The position numbers and the translations under genes were made by a program. This document shows positions 4,221 through 53,604 of a stretch of DNA of 64,000 nucleotides, piece by piece. A model generated the notes under the pieces. It worked only from the letters and a program-made list of their open reading frames with translations, was not told the DNA's origin and made no database searches. Location of the stretch: assembly GCF_009931435.1 (NCBI RefSeq), contig NZ_CP043414.1; one strand, 5' to 3'. The DNA is from Escherichia coli (lineage in GTDB: Bacteria; Pseudomonadota; Gammaproteobacteria; Enterobacterales; Enterobacteriaceae). Position 1 is the first letter of the stretch; each line of letters begins with the position of its first letter.

Positions 4221-5711
<1,491 letters not shown>

Positions 5712-5941
5712 TTACGCAATATTTAATGCTATTTGTTAACATTTGCTGTTATTTTGCACGGTCTATATTGGGTATGGATGTGGTGATCGCTGCGCAAATG
5801 CACGCTTTTAGGGCAATAAATGCCTGATTTTTGGGCAAGATAATTAACGTTTTCGTATAGTAACAGAGTGAAAGTATTTTAAATCAAGGAATTAGATTTG
5901 TGCTTTAATCGCAAATTGCGATCTAAATCAAATTAATCGGT

Positions 5942-35010: not shown

Positions 35011-35129
35011 TGTAGTTTCCCTGTACTGATAGGTGTTGAGTGCCATTGTAGTGCGATAAGGGTAAGTCATAAACCAGAATAATGTGAAGCTATGCGTTGC
35101 TGCCGCTAATCATTAGCGTTATAGTGAAT

Positions 35130-44451: not shown

Positions 44452-46347
<1,896 letters not shown>

Positions 46348-46410: not shown

Positions 46411-48552
46411 TCAAAATTCCATTTTCACCGTGAATTGCACTTCACGAGGATCGCCAATCTGGTTGCCCAGATTATTTGTGGCGATGGAAGAGGTGTAATA
46501 CGTTTTATCAAACAGGTTTTTGACGTTTAATTGCAGTGTGACCGGATACTGCAATTTCATTTTGTATGCGGCGAAGGCATCGGCAACAAAATAGCCTGGC
46601 AGATAATAGTCAGCCCCATTGGTTGCCGAACGACGGCTTACACCATGTCCACCACCGCCAAACGTCAGTGTGTTATTGCCTGGCATGTTATGAATATCAT
46701 AGGTCAGGAATAGCGAACCGGTATGACGAGGAACATTCGGCAATGGTTTCCCTGCATAATCAGGATCCTCCAGAACCTTAGCATCGGTATAGCCGTAGCT
46801 GGCAATGATATTAATGTTTTCAGTTAATGCTCCCGCAAGGTCGACTTCTACCCCTCTTGAACGAACACGGCCTGCCGTTTTGGCAATGGTTTCATCACCA
46901 ACACTTTCGGTATACAACACATTACGTTTATGGATATCAAACAGCGCAATATCTGCGGTGATACCATCGAATAGCTCGAATTTTGCCCCGACTTCGTAAG
47001 CATTAGATGATTCTGGTGGTAGATCGCCAATGTAGCTGGCAATTGACGATTGCGGCATAAATGTTTGCGAATAATTGGCAAATAAGGATACCGATGGCGT
47101 CAGTTTGTAGACCAATCCCAGTTTGGGAGTCCATTGTTCATCGCGGCTGTCAGTATTGACATTAAAAGGACGGCCTTTACCCGCATACTGCGTGTAATAC
47201 TGATAGCGGAGCCCGGCGACGGCAATCCAGTTATCGGTCAGATAGAGTGCATCCTGTGCATAAGCTGAGTAGCTCTCCTGTTTGATCGTCTGATCACTGT
47301 CCGACGCCGAGACCGTTGTGCATTTGCTGGTATTGCCATAAACAGGGTTGTAGATATTGAAATCTTTAGCTTTTTTACAGCGAATCATATCTGTGCGCAG
47401 AAGATCATAATATTCATATGACACCCCACCCAGAATCTCATTATAGAATCCAGCAACATCAACATTCCCTTGCAGATCCGCACGAGTAGCATGCATACGC
47501 TGGGTAGATCCTTGAGTTGCATCAACACGCCGTGTCAGCGTTCCTGTCGTTGCATCATACGCGGTAACACGCGCCTGATTATCGCTGTATTTATCCTGGC
47601 TGTAGCTGTAATCAAAGCGCGCTGTCCACTGGCTATTGAGATGATATTCTGCGTTGAGTTGCGCCAGATCGGACTGACCATCTGTAATATTAAACGGTTC
47701 GTCAAAACGTATTTTTCGATCAACGTTTACGGGCTGTTTCGTCGTAAGGTCGAAAATCGTTCCACGATCGAACGGAGTTTTATAGTCCCGATGGGAATAG
47801 AGCATGGTTACTGTTGCATTATCACCAAACCAGGTGAGTGACGGGGCAATAAATGTACTGCGCTCTTTACCGAAGTTTCGCCAGTAATCTTCATCCTGCA
47901 CTTCCCCGGTAAGGCGATACGCCAGCTGAGTGCCTTCAATGGGACCTGTGATATCCAATTGCCCAGTGCCTCCGCCAAAACTGGAGGAAGTGGCTGAGAC
48001 AGTACCATGGAATGTTTTTTCCGGGCGCTTTGTCACGACGTTAATCAGTCCGCCAGGATCGAGAATGCCATACAGCGTGGAGGCCGGACCTTTTAGCACT
48101 TCCACACGTTCTGTGGCGGCGTTGAAACTGCGAGGAAGTACAGTTCGCAGGCCGTTGGTCATGATGGAGCCATCCCGGTTAGCACCAAACCCACGACGTA
48201 CAAAAGCATCCTGAGTCCCGCCTAATGTATTGGTCTGTACCACGTTACTGACGTTATAAAGTGCCTCATCCAGCGTCGTCGCATTCTGATTTTCCAGAAC
48301 TTGATCGCTAACCGTATTGACCACCTGCGGGATATCCAGCATCGGCATATCGGTTAATGTCGCCGTGGAGGTGCTCAGAGGTTGATAACCATCGGTCGCC
48401 TCAGTTGCGGTATTTGCATCCGCTGTAACAGTGATTGTTTCGCCATCTTTGGTCGTTACAGTGTCGGTTGCATGAATCATCGGTGCTGCAAAGAGCAGTG
48501 AAAAGAGCGCTCGACCTTTGAGTCCTGAGAATGAAGGTGTGAACATAGCCAT
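46411..48552 (-). CDS. TonB-dependent outer-membrane receptor (siderophore-type)
   Basis: ORF track 713 aa; signal peptide, TonB box ETITVTA, plug domain, C-terminal aromatic residue (FTVKMEF). Confidence 0.85.
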   Translation of the reverse strand: MAMFTPSFSGLKGRALFSLLFAAPMIHATDTVTTKDGETITVTADANTATEATDGYQPLSTSTATLTDMPMLDIPQVVNTVSDQVLENQNATTLDEALYNVSNVVQTNTLGGTQDAFVRRGFGANRDGSIMTNGLRTVLPRSFNAATERVEVLKGPASTLYGILDPGGLINVVTKRPEKTFHGTVSATSSSFGGGTGQLDITGPIEGTQLAYRLTGEVQDEDYWRNFGKERSTFIAPSLTWFGDNATVTMLYSHRDYKTPFDRGTIFDLTTKQPVNVDRKIRFDEPFNITDGQSDLAQLNAEYHLNSQWTARFDYSYSQDKYSDNQARVTAYDATTGTLTRRVDATQGSTQRMHATRADLQGNVDVAGFYNEILGGVSYEYYDLLRTDMIRCKKAKDFNIYNPVYGNTSKCTTVSASDSDQTIKQESYSAYAQDALYLTDNWIAVAGLRYQYYTQYAGKGRPFNVNTDSRDEQWTPKLGLVYKLTPSVSLFANYSQTFMPQSSIASYIGDLPPESSNAYEVGAKFELFDGITADIALFDIHKRNVLYTESVGDETIAKTAGRVRSRGVEVDLAGALTENINIIASYGYTDAKVLEDPDYAGKPLPNVPRHTGSLFLTYDIHNMPGNNTLTFGGGGHGVSRRSATNGADYYLPGYFVADAFAAYKMKLQYPVTLQLNVKNLFDKTYYTSSIATNNLGNQIGDPREVQFTVKMEF

Positions 48553-48650
48553 TTAGTCTGTTATCCCAAAAACTCGCGGATTGTCGCGAGTGAAAATTGT
48601 TTCTTATTGCTCACTAAGCACTATCCGTTTGTTATTTCGCCATCGGATAT

Positions 48651-48669
48651 GTAATTGAGAATCATTCAA
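48651..48669. promoter_or_regulatory. Candidate Fur box in the receptor/ABC divergent control region
   Basis: gtaattgagaatcattcaa, about 12/19 match to Fur consensus, core GAGAATCATT. Confidence 0.35.
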
Positions 48670-48925
48670 TCACGCGGTAATGTAGTAGTAAATGAGAAAT
48701 AACAAAAAATTGCTACATGTGTTTTTATGAAAGGTTTATACAATTTAATTGTTTTTAATTTATTAATATTTAATGTTTTTATTTTTATGTGCAAAAATAT
48801 TTTACCTGTTATTTACCTTGTTTTTGTGTGGCTTTTAACTGCTTGACTACTACATTTTGTGGCATCAAACTCTCAAAGGAGAATGAGTTTTATTTTTGTT
48901 TGTCTTTGATTAAGTTGGCGTACAC

Positions 48926-49735
48926 GTGGCACATAACGCAAAAGGGCAGGGGCTGATCCTCGACAATGTTTCTGCCGGGTATCACAAGAAAATCATTGTT
49001 GATGGTGTTTCTTTCTCCGTTCCCACAGAAAAAATGACCGTTCTGGTTGGGGCAAACGGCTGTGGAAAGTCGACGCTGCTCAGCACCATTGCTCGTATCT
49101 TGCATCCCATGGGCGGTTCGATATTGCTTGATGGCAACGCGATTCACGAGCAACCAACGAAAGCGTTATCCCGTAGACTTGGGATCTTGCCGCAGTCGCC
49201 ATTATTGCCGGAGGGCTTAACCGTTTATGAACTGGTGTCGCGTGGGCGTTTTCCCTGGCAGAATTTCATTCGTCAATGGAGCGACGCCGATGAGCTGGCG
49301 GTAGAAGAGGCCCTGAAATTAACGGGTACGCAGGAGTTTGCACATTTACCTGTTGAAAAACTCTCTGGTGGGCAGCGCCAGCGTTGCTGGATTGCGATGG
49401 TGTTGGCGCAAAAGACGCCTTATATCCTGCTGGATGAACCCACAACCTGGCTTGATTTACGTTATCAGGTTGAAATTCTTGAGTTATTACATGATTTAAC
49501 GCGTCATCACGGGCGTACAGTCGTCGTGGTGTTGCATGATCTGAATTTTGCCGTCAATTATGGCGATACGTTGATATTTTTACGCCAGGGGAAAGTGGTG
49601 CGTGTGTTGAATGAGGGGGAGCATTGCACGCCTGAGCTGGTAAAAGCGGTCTTTGACGTTGATGTTCACGCATCAATAAATCCTCTGACGGGAAAGCCGT
49701 TCTTCATGCCGTTTCGTGGTGTAGAAAAAGTATGA
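48926..49735 (+). CDS. Iron-siderophore ABC transporter ATP-binding protein (FecE/FepC-like)
   Basis: ORF track 269 aa; Walker A GANGCGKST, signature LSGGQRQR, Walker B ILLDEP; GTG start with weak SD. Confidence 0.85.
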   Translation: MAHNAKGQGLILDNVSAGYHKKIIVDGVSFSVPTEKMTVLVGANGCGKSTLLSTIARILHPMGGSILLDGNAIHEQPTKALSRRLGILPQSPLLPEGLTVYELVSRGRFPWQNFIRQWSDADELAVEEALKLTGTQEFAHLPVEKLSGGQRQRCWIAMVLAQKTPYILLDEPTTWLDLRYQVEILELLHDLTRHHGRTVVVVLHDLNFAVNYGDTLIFLRQGKVVRVLNEGEHCTPELVKAVFDVDVHASINPLTGKPFFMPFRGVEKV

Positions 49736-51771: not shown

Positions 51772-52719
51772 ATGCGTTTATTTTTTTCTCTGCTGATACT
51801 GTTGTCATTTTTTTCCCGTGCAACAGAACCTGTTCAGGTATTTACTGATGATTTAGGGCGCAAAGTCACTGTTCCTGCTCATCCAAAGAGAATTGTCTCT
51901 TTACACGATCTTGATATCACTATTCCTCTGATTGAGCTCGGTGTACCTCCTATCGCCAGCCACGGGCGAACTCGGCCTGACGGTAGCCATTTCATTCGAT
52001 CTGGCGCGTTATTGACAGGTGTCGACTTTGATAATTCATCGATCGCCTTTATTGGTACCGCTGATATTGATATTGAAGCGATTGTGGCGGCAAAGCCTGA
52101 CCTGATCATCACAGAACCGACCCGTAATACGCCCATTGAACAACTTGAAAAAATTGCGCCCACGGTGAGCATTGATCATCTCAAAGGGGGCGCGCCAGAA
52201 ATCTATCGCAAGCTGGCAGAACTTACAGGAACGCAGTCGCAGCTGGCGATACTTGAACGCCGCTATCAGGCACAAATCAATGCGCTGAAGGCGACGCTGG
52301 ACAGCCAAAAAATAACGGTATCGGTGATTCAGGCAAACCAGGGAAAAATTAATGTGATGCATAGCTATCATTCGCTGGGGCGGGTATTACGCGATGCTGG
52401 TTTTCGTTTTCCGCCGCTGATTGAGAGCATTCCTGAAGGTGGGCGAATGGATGTGAGCGCGGAGCGTTTACCTGAACTGGATGCCGATTTTGTTTTTGCA
52501 ACCTGGCGCGGTGACACCGGGGGTAAACCTCAGGATGAGCTGGCAGCAATGGAAAAAGTCATGCCGGGATGGTGTCAGTTTCTGACTGCCTGTCGTTCCG
52601 GGCGTTATGTGCTGATTTCTCGTGAAGAGGCAATTTCTAACTCCTTTGCATCTCTGGGGCTGATGGCTGCGCAGATACAATCACAAATTGCAGGGCGACC
52701 TCTACCGGAGGCTAAATGA
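51772..52719 (+). CDS. Periplasmic siderophore-binding protein (class III, FecB/FhuD-like)
   Basis: ORF track 51709..52719; start MRLFFSLLILLSFFSRA at 51772 with gggag SD; signal peptide. Confidence 0.8.
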   Translation: MRLFFSLLILLSFFSRATEPVQVFTDDLGRKVTVPAHPKRIVSLHDLDITIPLIELGVPPIASHGRTRPDGSHFIRSGALLTGVDFDNSSIAFIGTADIDIEAIVAAKPDLIITEPTRNTPIEQLEKIAPTVSIDHLKGGAPEIYRKLAELTGTQSQLAILERRYQAQINALKATLDSQKITVSVIQANQGKINVMHSYHSLGRVLRDAGFRFPPLIESIPEGGRMDVSAERLPELDADFVFATWRGDTGGKPQDELAAMEKVMPGWCQFLTACRSGRYVLISREEAISNSFASLGLMAAQIQSQIAGRPLPEAK

Positions 52720-53604
52720 TCCAGAAAGATAAAGCGCGGGTTGATATTTTTGGTGAGCGTTTTCGCACTCGCGCGAGTCAGTTAACGCCTGGGTTAAGAG
52801 CTGTCGCCAGCTACATTAATGAGCATCGTGAAGTGGTACTCGAGCAAACGGCGATGGAAATTGCGGCCACGTTGAACACTTCCGATGCCACAGTTATCAG
52901 GGCTATACAGGCCCTGGGGTTTGCCGGGCTGCGTGATCTGAAACGCACTCTGGAACAGTGGCTTGGTCCAGCCCTTAGTTCCAGCGAAAAGATGTCTACG
53001 ACGGTGAGTAACTTGACGAGCGATGTTAACACCGCAATCGACTTTGTTCTTGAAGGGCATTTGTATACCTGTAATGTCCTGTCAGAGCCTGAAAACCGCC
53101 ACGCGCTTGCGCAAGCTGTAGCGTTGTTGGTGCAGGCACGGCAAGTCGCAATTTTTGGCATTGGCGCTTCGGGTATTCTGGCGGACTATACCGCACGACT
53201 ATTCAACCGCATAGGTTTGCCTGCCACGGCACTAAACCGTACGGGTATTGGCCTTGCCGAGCAACTGATCGCGCTTCAACGTGGCGATGTTCTGATCATG
53301 ATGGCGCAAAAATCTGCGCACCGGGAAGGGGTGACAACGCTTCGTGAGGCGAGGCGGCTGGGGAATCCCTGTTATTTTGCTGACAAACGCGCTGGATTCA
53401 CGTTTTAGCAAAGACGCCAGTATCGTGATTCATGTTCCGCGCGGGGATGAAAAAGGGAAAACGCCGCTACATGGTACGGTATTGTTGTGTCTGGAAATGA
53501 TTGTCTGGTCGGTAGCTTCCGCAGTGCCGCAGCGTGCGGTTAAAACCATTAAGCGAATTAACGATTTCCATCGAGGACTGAAAACGGGAAGAAAGAATGG
53601 CTAA
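52716..53604 (+). pseudogene. RpiR/MurR-family regulator (HTH_6 plus SIS domain) interrupted by a +1 frameshift near 53357..53362
   Basis: ORF 52716..53408 ends in NPCYFADKRAGFTF; ORF 53344..53604 in the next frame continues the SIS domain as GIPVILLTNALDSRF...; the two join across a gggg/aa run. Confidence 0.7.

Follow-up and report, generated by a model that had tools for sequence, protein, structure and literature searches.

The 373-bp spacer at 48553-48925 in the 64,000-nucleotide stretch of Escherichia coli contig NZ_CP043414.1 analyzed here (the window) separates fitA from fitB in the E. coli fit islet and is a known bidirectional promoter. Our best explanation, which we hold with considerable confidence, is that it acts as a bidirectional fit promoter-operator with Fur and FitR sites at both promoters, a phased and looped pair of FitR operators, a structured fitA leader, an eight-codon open reading frame (ORF) produced incidentally by a Fur box, and a fitB start at GTG 48926. 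Beyond the literature, this explanation draws on 39 orthologous loci and on more distant FitR-linked loci. The nature of the region, a Fur- and FitR-repressed bidirectional fit promoter, has been known since 2006-2008 and adds nothing new by itself, whereas the site-level anatomy of the operators and leader appears unmapped in the literature; the assignments proposed below would be new and of moderate specialist interest.

The fit locus and its published regulation

The fit islet sits between parE and ygiN. Next to parE (44455-46347) lies fitA (46411-48552, minus strand), encoding a 713-aa TonB-dependent siderophore receptor, followed by the spacer. On the plus strand come the FecE-like ATPase gene fitB (48926-49735), the two FecCD permease genes fitC/D, the periplasmic binding protein gene fitE and fitR, whose product is a MurR/RpiR-family regulator with HTH_6 and SIS domains; ygiN and mdaB follow downstream of fitR. 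This gene content, with fitA divergent from fitB, is that of the fit locus, with fitA read leftwards and fitBCDE-fitR rightwards from the one spacer. The RefSeq annotation, taken from an E. coli locus 99.7% identical, has no feature within the spacer. The G+C content is 30.0% in the spacer versus 51.5% in the whole window, and 23-25% in the spacer centre. The spacer was found in 1870 of 5426 complete E. coli genomes (34%), as an accessory islet.

The fit system was reportedly first described by Ouyang and Isaacson in a 2006 paper. In their 2008 study, the intergenic region of strain i484 was cloned in both orientations and found to be a bidirectional promoter, with Fur-Fe2+ and the RpiR-family repressor FitR acting as independent repressors of both sides (PMC2593036). 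In a fur mutant fitA was up 23-fold, a lacZ fusion with the intergenic region was expressed and responded to Fur and FitR, and FitR specifically shifted the intergenic fragment by electrophoretic mobility shift assay (EMSA); the exact Fur and FitR sites were not identified by the authors (PMC2593036). The first-pass annotation of this DNA, made from the sequence alone, had described the spacer as a divergent control region with a candidate Fur box between a receptor gene and an ABC operon, in agreement with the published iron- and Fur-regulated promoter.

Four conserved blocks in the spacer

A FitA-based scan yielded 39 orthologous loci with FitA identities of 70-98% from Escherichia, Enterobacter, Lelliottia, Silvania, Huaxiibacter, Citrobacter, Kosakonia, Kluyvera, Yokenella, Erwinia, Pantoea, and Affinibrenneria, and fitB was divergent from fitA in all of them. 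Alignment of the spacers revealed four invariant or near-invariant blocks (A1, A2, B1, and B2; Table 1) amid otherwise unalignable AT-rich DNA. The A1 20-mer was exact in 35 of the 39 loci, and the block was invariant across at least 10 genera. A2 and B1 were invariant in the 38 aligned loci, and B2, with the conserved sequence GAGAATGAGwTTTATTTTTATTT from 48879, was conserved in all genera aligned. Across the 1870 E. coli genomes the spacers were 93-99.5% identical to that of the window and the four blocks unchanged, with the substitutions concentrated at 48727-48809, that is, in the spacer centre. This centre varied much more (alleles as low as 93% identity across 401 bp) than the genes on either side (~98%), and its length was constant.

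Table 1. Coordinates of the fitA-fitB control region and of the features assigned within it
Feature	Position	Strand	Remarks
fitA-fitB intergenic control region	48553..48925	.	ORFs and protein families, RefSeq, published regulation; 30% G+C
Probable fitA Shine-Dalgarno core GGGA	48564..48567	-	~11 nt before ATG 48552..48550; putative role
HP2 hairpin, fitA 5' untranslated region (UTR)	48572..48591	-	Ends 19 nt before AUG
Conserved unpaired leader motif GUGAGCAAUAA (GGGCAAUGA in most genera)	48604..48614	-	Between the hairpins; complementary to RyhB core CAUUGCUCAC
HP1 5'-proximal stem-loop, outer stem UAUCCG/CGGAUA	48622..48649	-	RNAalifold on MAFFT alignment
Block A1 TGTAATTGAGAATCATTCAA	48650..48669	.	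Fur-like box 48651-48669, predicted fitA -10, and TGTAAT hexamer 48650-48655
Block A2 TGTAGTAGTAAA	48681..48692	.	FitR-type half-site TGTAGT 48681-48686 abutting predicted fitA -35
Auxiliary half-site GCTACA (ACTACA in 15 other loci)	48712..48717	.	31 bp (~3 turns) from A2 half-site; weak here, 5/6
IHF-consensus-like element TATTAATAAATTA	48756..48768	-	8/9 to WATCAANNNNTTR; centre of A2-B1 interval
Block B1 TTGACTACTACA	48843..48854	.	Predicted fitB -35 and FitR-type half-sites ACTACT/ACTACA 48846-48854
Predicted fitB -10 CAAACT (CAAAAT or CATGAT in other genera)	48866..48871	+	17 bp after TTGACT
Block B2, Fur box GAGAATGAGTTTTATTTTT	48879..48897	.	~+1..+19 of predicted fitB promoter; strongest Fur match of the region
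8-codon ORF MSFIFVCL	48883..48909	+	Probably not a gene; no coding sequence in RefSeq
fitB GTG start codon	48926..48928	+	Aligns with ATG and GCAGGAGT in other genera; same in RefSeq

Predicted promoters and Fur boxes

A predicted fitA -35 (TTTACT, 48692..48687, minus strand) lies within A2 and is separated by 17 bp from a predicted -10 (TTGAAT, 48669..48664, minus strand) within A1, with the TG of an extended -10 at 48672..48671 (TGnTTGAAT). The predicted fitB -35 (TTGACT, 48843-48848) lies within B1, and the A at position 2 and the T at position 6 of the fitB -10 hexamer are retained across genera. Accordingly placed transcription starts are predicted near 48656 (fitA) and 48878 (fitB). A consensus promoter and terminator scan gave no match at its thresholds (9/12 for promoters), so these promoters are read from conserved hexamers and their spacing. 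Each would be a weak sigma-70 promoter whose -35 (TTTACT or TTGACT) is fused to TGTAGT/ACTACA FitR half-sites.

Fur sites were scored with a symmetrised matrix built from the best site of each of 14 E. coli K-12 Fur-regulated promoters, with leave-one-out training scores of 5.3-19.0 bits. The best scores in shuffled spacers had a mean of 5.7 and a standard deviation of 2.5, with 95th and 99th percentiles of 10.3 and 12.3. The site at 48879..48897, which the first-pass annotation had missed and which overlaps the ATG of the eight-codon ORF, matched the Fur consensus GATAATGATAATCATTATC at 13/19 positions and scored 13.0 bits, above the 99th percentile of shuffles and within the range of known sites. 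From the sequence, we conclude that B2 is a Fur box. The Fur-box-like site that had been noted first, at 48651..48669 (GTAATTGAGAATCATTCAA), is indeed present with 12/19 matches, in a conserved block overlapping the predicted fitA -10. Its score of 7.7 bits is inside the shuffle range, yet above that of fhuE (5.3) and near that of tonB (8.1) in leave-one-out scoring. The significance of this site comes from the conservation of the 20-mer and not from the match, and the invariance of A1 may be attributed to the predicted -10 and start site that are also inside it. A1 is probably a weaker Fur box. Both Fur-type sites overlap the -10/+1 of promoters that are themselves predicted, and a Fur box would cover the -10/+1 of each promoter, strong on the fitB side and weak-scoring on the fitA side.

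Similar arrangements were seen in more distant loci. In L060, a FitR homologue is linked to a promoter whose 15.5-bit Fur box lies 36 bp from TTGACTACTAC, the same distance as B2 from B1. The receptor promoter of L059 (70% G+C) retains TTTACTACTACAT followed by TTGACAATCATTCTCAAT, the counterpart of A1, and its ATCATTCTCAAT block scores 8.8 bits. The possibility of a third Fur box, in the centre of the spacer, was rejected, as the matrix gave none there in the window and the semi-conserved element at this place better fits the IHF consensus. Elsewhere in the window, 19-mers at 35105, 18704, and 5697-5728 scored 10.5-13.4 bits with the Fur matrix, the one at 35105 (13.4) above B2.

Candidate FitR operators

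A2 and B1 are inverted copies of each other with the shared motif TTKACTACTACA, and ACTACTACA has no further copy in the 64 kb, where 0.13 occurrences are expected. TGTAGT (48681-86) and ACTACA (48849-54) form inverted half-sites of the kind found in operators of RpiR-family regulators (RccR/HexR type), and an RccR-related RpiR regulator, fitR, is encoded nearby. The best PDB match of FitR, and its closest solved relative, is Pseudomonas RccR (8JU9, E 1.3e-14), a tetramer that binds TGTAGT/ACTACA repeats with variable spacers according to chromatin immunoprecipitation sequencing, surface plasmon resonance, footprinting, and EMSA. fitR was linked to the fit genes in all loci checked. Loci L029, L031, and L039 at first appeared to be fitR-less counter-examples; this was dismissed for the one that could be extended, L029 (Erwinia JUb26), in which fitR lies beyond three extra genes.

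The motif also recurs away from the fit locus. TTKACTACTACAT is found beside FitR-like genes in contigs of 63-70% G+C, and the 12-13-mer TTKACTACTACA(T) flanks FitR-like RpiR genes (42-45% identity) in three unrelated contigs, two of them with 63-70% G+C: L059 (763-930), L061 (697-709/851-860/1861-1873), and L060 (655-709). In L059, an inverted copy of TGTAGTAGT (ATGTAGTAGT) is located 127 bp upstream of the TTTACTACTACAT promoter, where there is no divergent gene that it could serve. In L061, three motif copies surround the gene for the FitR-like regulator, and there is no TonB receptor within 10 kb.

Considering that the -35 explains only half of each block, that the remainder is the RccR motif, that fitR is linked to these loci, and that the motif recurs near FitR-like genes, A2 and B1 are likely FitR operators. 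An alternative is that the TTKACTACTACA blocks are core promoter only (-35 plus spacer) and that FitR binds elsewhere, for example at TGTAAT-N8-ATTCAA in A1, or at B2. Both blocks do contain good -35 hexamers 17 bp from plausible -10s, they never vary, so that co-variation with FitR cannot be shown, and A1 begins with TGTAAT, an HexR/RccR-like half-site. However, the -35 accounts for 6 of the 12-13 invariant positions, the extra ACTACA is the footprinted half-site of RccR, the inverted copy in L059 has no divergent gene, the motif occurs three times around the FitR-like gene in L061, and the spacing is phased. We regard this alternative as improbable and retain A2 and B1 as the candidate FitR operators. 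Checked by eye, sigma-54, sigma-E, and ECF promoters and IscR, CpxR, and NarL sites gave no match to the TTKACTACTACA block.

Further TGTAGT/ACTACA hexamers recur in the spacers, with ACTACA at +30/31 from A2. A short RccR-type pseudo-palindrome of 15 or 28 bp, as bound by one dimer or tetramer, was not found in the fit spacer, where the half-sites are 31 and 168 or 190 bp apart.

Two side observations concern FitR and its operon. Given L061, the role of the FitR-like regulators and their operator may extend beyond siderophore uptake. The fit operons of Erwinia, Pantoea, and Affinibrenneria carry extra genes between fitE and fitR; in Erwinia sp. JUb26 (L053 4981-12830) these encode a PepSY_TM protein (siderophore-reductase-like) and two PBP_like_2 proteins, and PepSY_TM and PBP_like_2 are present in L031 too.

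Phased spacing around an IHF-like element

The centres of the A2 and B1 half-sites are 167-169 bp apart in the Escherichia/Enterobacter group, equal to 16.0 helical turns, and 189-191 bp apart in Citrobacter, Kosakonia, Kluyvera, Yokenella, Erwinia, Pantoea, and Affinibrenneria, equal to 18.1 turns. The distance is constant within 1 bp inside each class, and the classes differ by ~21 bp. The auxiliary 31-bp spacing and the 168/190-bp spacings of A2 and B1 are all near integral helical turns.

At the centre of the interval lies an IHF-like element whose match is complete (9/9) in other E. coli alleles. Of 37 distinct sequences, 33 contained a match of 8/9 or better to WATCAANNNNTTR within 15 bp of the A2-B1 midpoint, versus 8.7% of shuffled spacers. 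In ~30 of the 37, from both spacing classes, the match was located about -6 bp relative to the midpoint, on the minus strand; matches to this consensus are common in AT-rich DNA. The ~21-bp difference between the classes splits into ~10.5 + 10.5 bp around the element, about one turn per arm. These data suggest a phased FitR complex, probably looped and aided by a bend. Inverted FitR sites 16 or 18 turns apart around an IHF-like site, in bendable AT-rich DNA, would allow one looped repressor complex to shut both promoters.

H-NS prefers AT-rich, low-G+C DNA, and the AT-rich centre could instead be horizontally acquired, H-NS-bound DNA in which the constant spacing is inherited and not selected. 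The accessory status of the islet (34% of E. coli genomes) and the 23-25% G+C of the centre are consistent with this explanation. However, the centre is scrambled between genera and polymorphic in E. coli, yet its length is fixed within 1 bp, and the sole length change, of ~21 bp, is evenly split around a positionally conserved IHF-like motif. We consider inherited spacing rather unlikely; H-NS binding itself is compatible with the looped FitR complex and not exclusive of it.

The fitA leader

The fitA mRNA would have a leader of ~104 nt, in which two hairpins with compensatory changes and an unpaired RyhB-complementary motif would provide a layer of post-transcriptional control. The perfect 7-bp repeat actcgcg-gattgt-cgcgagt reported in the first-pass annotation is present and conserved by covariation, although it lies 6 nt away from the 48566..48586 given there. 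As fitA-strand RNA, this hairpin (HP2) folds at -12.4 kcal/mol (z = -3.51), and none of 200 shuffles folded as well. HP2 was tested by per-sequence shuffles and by within-clade alignment. A hairpin of unrelated sequence occupies this place in all 40 of 40 sequences, 15-24 nt before the AUG and 7-18 nt after the conserved motif, with a Fisher combined p of 5.5e-14 over 18 lineage representatives. Within E. coli, one pair occurs as G-C, G-U, and A-U, a double change via G-U. RNAalifold recovered HP2 in the Enterobacter group alignment. It missed the hairpin when given the MAFFT alignment of all genera, in which the stems have no sequence in common.

HP1 starts a few nucleotides after the predicted fitA start. 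In the alignment 89.3% of its cells were paired versus 78.3% in shuffles (0/500 as high) and ~32% with slid partners, and compensatory changes were found in 5 of 6 pairs. The GGGA/GGAA upstream of the fitA ATG was conserved in the 28-sequence leader alignment. Folding z-scores of the whole leader were not significant, only those of individual hairpins, and Rfam 15 gave no covariance-model match at E up to 1 in 48300-49200 on both strands.

Could HP2 be an intrinsic terminator or attenuator, so that, without the action of an antiterminating factor, most transcripts of fitA would end ahead of the coding region? In Escherichia a GC-rich 7-bp stem is followed by UUUUU, U-rich tails are also present in Citrobacter, Kluyvera, and Yokenella, and the position just before the Shine-Dalgarno sequence (SD) is conserved. 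However, the conserved U-tract of an intrinsic terminator is lacking: of 40 sequences, only 11 have 5 or more U among the 8 nt that follow the stem, and a U-rich tract is seen after HP2 in Enterobacteriaceae but not in Erwinia or Pantoea, with 1-2 U each, which argues against HP2 as a general terminator. In addition, the terminator scan was negative, no conserved alternative (antiterminator) pairing was seen, and the published lacZ fusion with the intergenic region was expressed and was Fur- and FitR-responsive (PMC2593036). Termination at HP2 is therefore quite unlikely. A post-transcriptional role of the fitA leader is likely.

In 17 of 18 leaders, the unpaired motif at 48604..48614, with near-invariant G-CAAU columns, ranked first or close to first (1-6) among the windows for pairing with the RyhB core, with 8-9 bp and -9 to -15 kcal/mol. 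The scan used 14-nt windows, as unrestricted RNAduplex gave meaningless full-length duplexes, and 0 of 100 shuffled RyhB cores reached the observed mean. The leader thus offers the accessible complementary site of a RyhB target, though complementarity alone does not establish regulation. The link of RyhB to the fitA leader is a tentative hypothesis to which we give rather less than an even chance. Nearby, at 48523-48544 (antisense of fitA codons 3-10), most orthologues have CCCAGAG, identical to the first 7 nt of OmrA/OmrB, and the window has TCCTGAG; this stretch is coding and too short to weigh.

The eight-codon ORF and the start of fitB

The first-pass annotation had listed an eight-codon ORF (MSFIFVCL) upstream of fitB. 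The ORF is present, with an aggag ending 1 nt before its ATG, and its status as a gene is not supported, since length, stop, and frame are unconserved. Across loci its length varies from 4 to >50 codons and its frame relative to fitB varies, to the point that in one Enterobacter the two reading frames are fused. The stop is missing from one E. coli allele (TGA to TGG), and the substitutions alter the amino acid (S/R/I, F/V). Most loci have AAGAG in place of AGGAG, as do two Escherichia alleles (LR14 and MOD1), and the predicted fitB transcription start at ~48878 falls inside this AGGAG. ATG 48883 is conserved as part of the DNA motif GAGAATGAG. The combination of features expected of a leader peptide (conserved start, stop, length and peptide, a workable SD distance, and a position within the transcript) was not found for this ORF. 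It is probably not a gene and would be a by-product of the Fur box, and annotators are cautioned against calling 48883..48909.

The same annotation regarded the GTG at 48926 as a start without a clear SD and hence uncertain. No SD-like sequence is indeed present upstream, but the start is not uncertain, as alignment and RefSeq agree on it. The GTG is the first start codon after an in-frame TAA, and the FecE profile begins at FitB residue 10. In Citrobacter, Kosakonia, Erwinia, Pantoea, and Yokenella it aligns with an ATG preceded by GCAGGAGT (AGGAG), and this alignment with an SD-preceded ATG in distant genera indicates that the annotated fitB start is right. By the same alignment, the Escherichia/Enterobacter clade has lost the strong fitB SD. 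Genera outside this clade (L015-L039) have a GC-rich insert of 30-45 nt, GCGCGCGCAGG...CCACGCCGTTGCGGC, between B2 and the fitB start (aligned to 48905-48925). The genera with the insert have a strong AGGAG and ATG for fitB, whereas the Escherichia/Enterobacter clade is without both and has GTG instead.

In an alternative model, a single Fur box at 48651-48669 controls the region, and the eight-codon ORF is translated from its AGGAG and coupled to the SD-less fitB. The invariant ATG, the first 4-6 codons, which are similar everywhere, and the GTG without SD of fitB in the Escherichia/Enterobacter clade fit such coupling, as does an ORF that always has 6 codons in distant genera (4 in Kluyvera), ending in TAA, TGA, or TAG. 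However, the genera with constant ORF length own a strong fitB SD, while in Escherichia/Enterobacter, the clade without it, the ORF runs from 7 to >37 codons in varying frames. The lost stop, the AAGAG of most loci, the 1-nt SD-ATG spacing, and the non-synonymous substitutions also argue against translation, and the block scores as a Fur box with the predicted start at ~48878 inside its AGGAG. This model is very unlikely to hold, and two Fur boxes with an incidental ORF remain our preferred reading.

A frameshift in fitR

In the window, fitR (52716-53604) carries a 1-bp insertion at ~53364 (GGGGAATCCC versus GGGGATCCC in other E. coli), which shifts the frame at about codon 217 of 295 and splits the gene into 52716..53369 and 53362..53601. 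A pseudogene, or a sequencing error, is probable. If the frameshift is real, Fur is probably the sole working repressor of the fit promoters in this strain. Strain L001 (99.7% identical) has a frameshift in fitE instead of fitR.

Discussion

Several points weigh against the promoter-operator anatomy proposed here. The orthologues are not independent, so that counting conserved loci exaggerates how well the sites are supported. The hexamers of the promoters are weak, both promoters falling under the scan threshold of 9/12, and the fitA-side Fur box (48651-48669) is not significant on score alone. Proteins were assigned to blocks by motif resemblance and not by co-variation, as the blocks never vary, and no TGTAGT motif is present near the FitR homologue of L058 (52% identity). 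The proposed loop and IHF binding are deduced from spacing alone. Finally, the RyhB match comprises only 8-9 bp and counts effectively as one test because the motif is conserved.

Two linked readings go further and are possible but doubtful. The fitA leader may be an undescribed riboregulatory module, with two covarying hairpins flanking a site for RyhB or a small RNA of the same seed, and a FitR tetramer may bridge the two operators, which overlap the -35 hexamers, across an IHF-bent loop whose helical phase is fixed at 16 or 18 turns. If the former is true, FitA synthesis would need Fur derepression plus RyhB/Hfq action; if the latter is true, one complex responding to a sugar-phosphate-like ligand would shut both divergent promoters. 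Confirmation would make fit a compact case of a SIS-domain repressor, of the sugar-phosphate-sensing type, looping DNA to gate siderophore uptake, and would add fitA to cirA as a receptor mRNA with a leader on which RyhB acts.

Compared with the published E. coli fit system, the locus, gene order, and parE-side insertion site are the same. The published intergenic fragment is described as 347 bp, the corresponding spacer here is 373 bp, and fitR is frameshifted in the window strain. The site assignments, the spacing rule, the IHF-like element, and the leader structure would be new. Where the 2008 paper had no sites, precise and testable ones can now be proposed: two Fur boxes, a phased RccR-type FitR operator pair, a central IHF-like site, and a structured fitA leader.

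Like fit, the classical Fur-repressed divergent promoters (fepA-fes, fepB-entC, and fepD-entS) serve divergent receptor and transport operons with Fur boxes over -10/+1, and the B2 score is within the range of their sites. Unlike them, fit has an extra dedicated RpiR-type repressor and a fixed ~170-bp spacer between the promoters, and the Fur box on its fitA side falls short of the ent cluster boxes in strength.

The 5' UTR of cirA is reportedly controlled by RyhB and Hfq, as is said to have been described by Salvail et al. in 2013. In both cases the leader belongs to the mRNA for a TonB-dependent receptor under iron regulation. An unpaired site with complementarity to the RyhB core is conserved in the fitA leader, which also has a hairpin and U-rich tract next to the SD; its predicted pairing with RyhB, however, covers no more than 8-9 bp, at a distance of ~50 nt upstream of the AUG.

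The closest parallel for the operators is RccR/HexR. RccR shares the HTH_6 and SIS architecture of FitR and is a tetrameric repressor, although the two proteins align only at E ~1e-14. The half-site hexamers are the same, and TGTAGTAGTC is found both in the RccR aceA probe and in the reverse complement of B1. RccR and HexR sense KDPG (2-keto-3-deoxy-6-phosphogluconate) and control carbon metabolism from half-sites with spacers of 3 or ~16 bp, whereas fit serves iron uptake and its half-sites are 31 and 168 or 190 bp apart. The fit region would work like an RccR operator but with a different layout.

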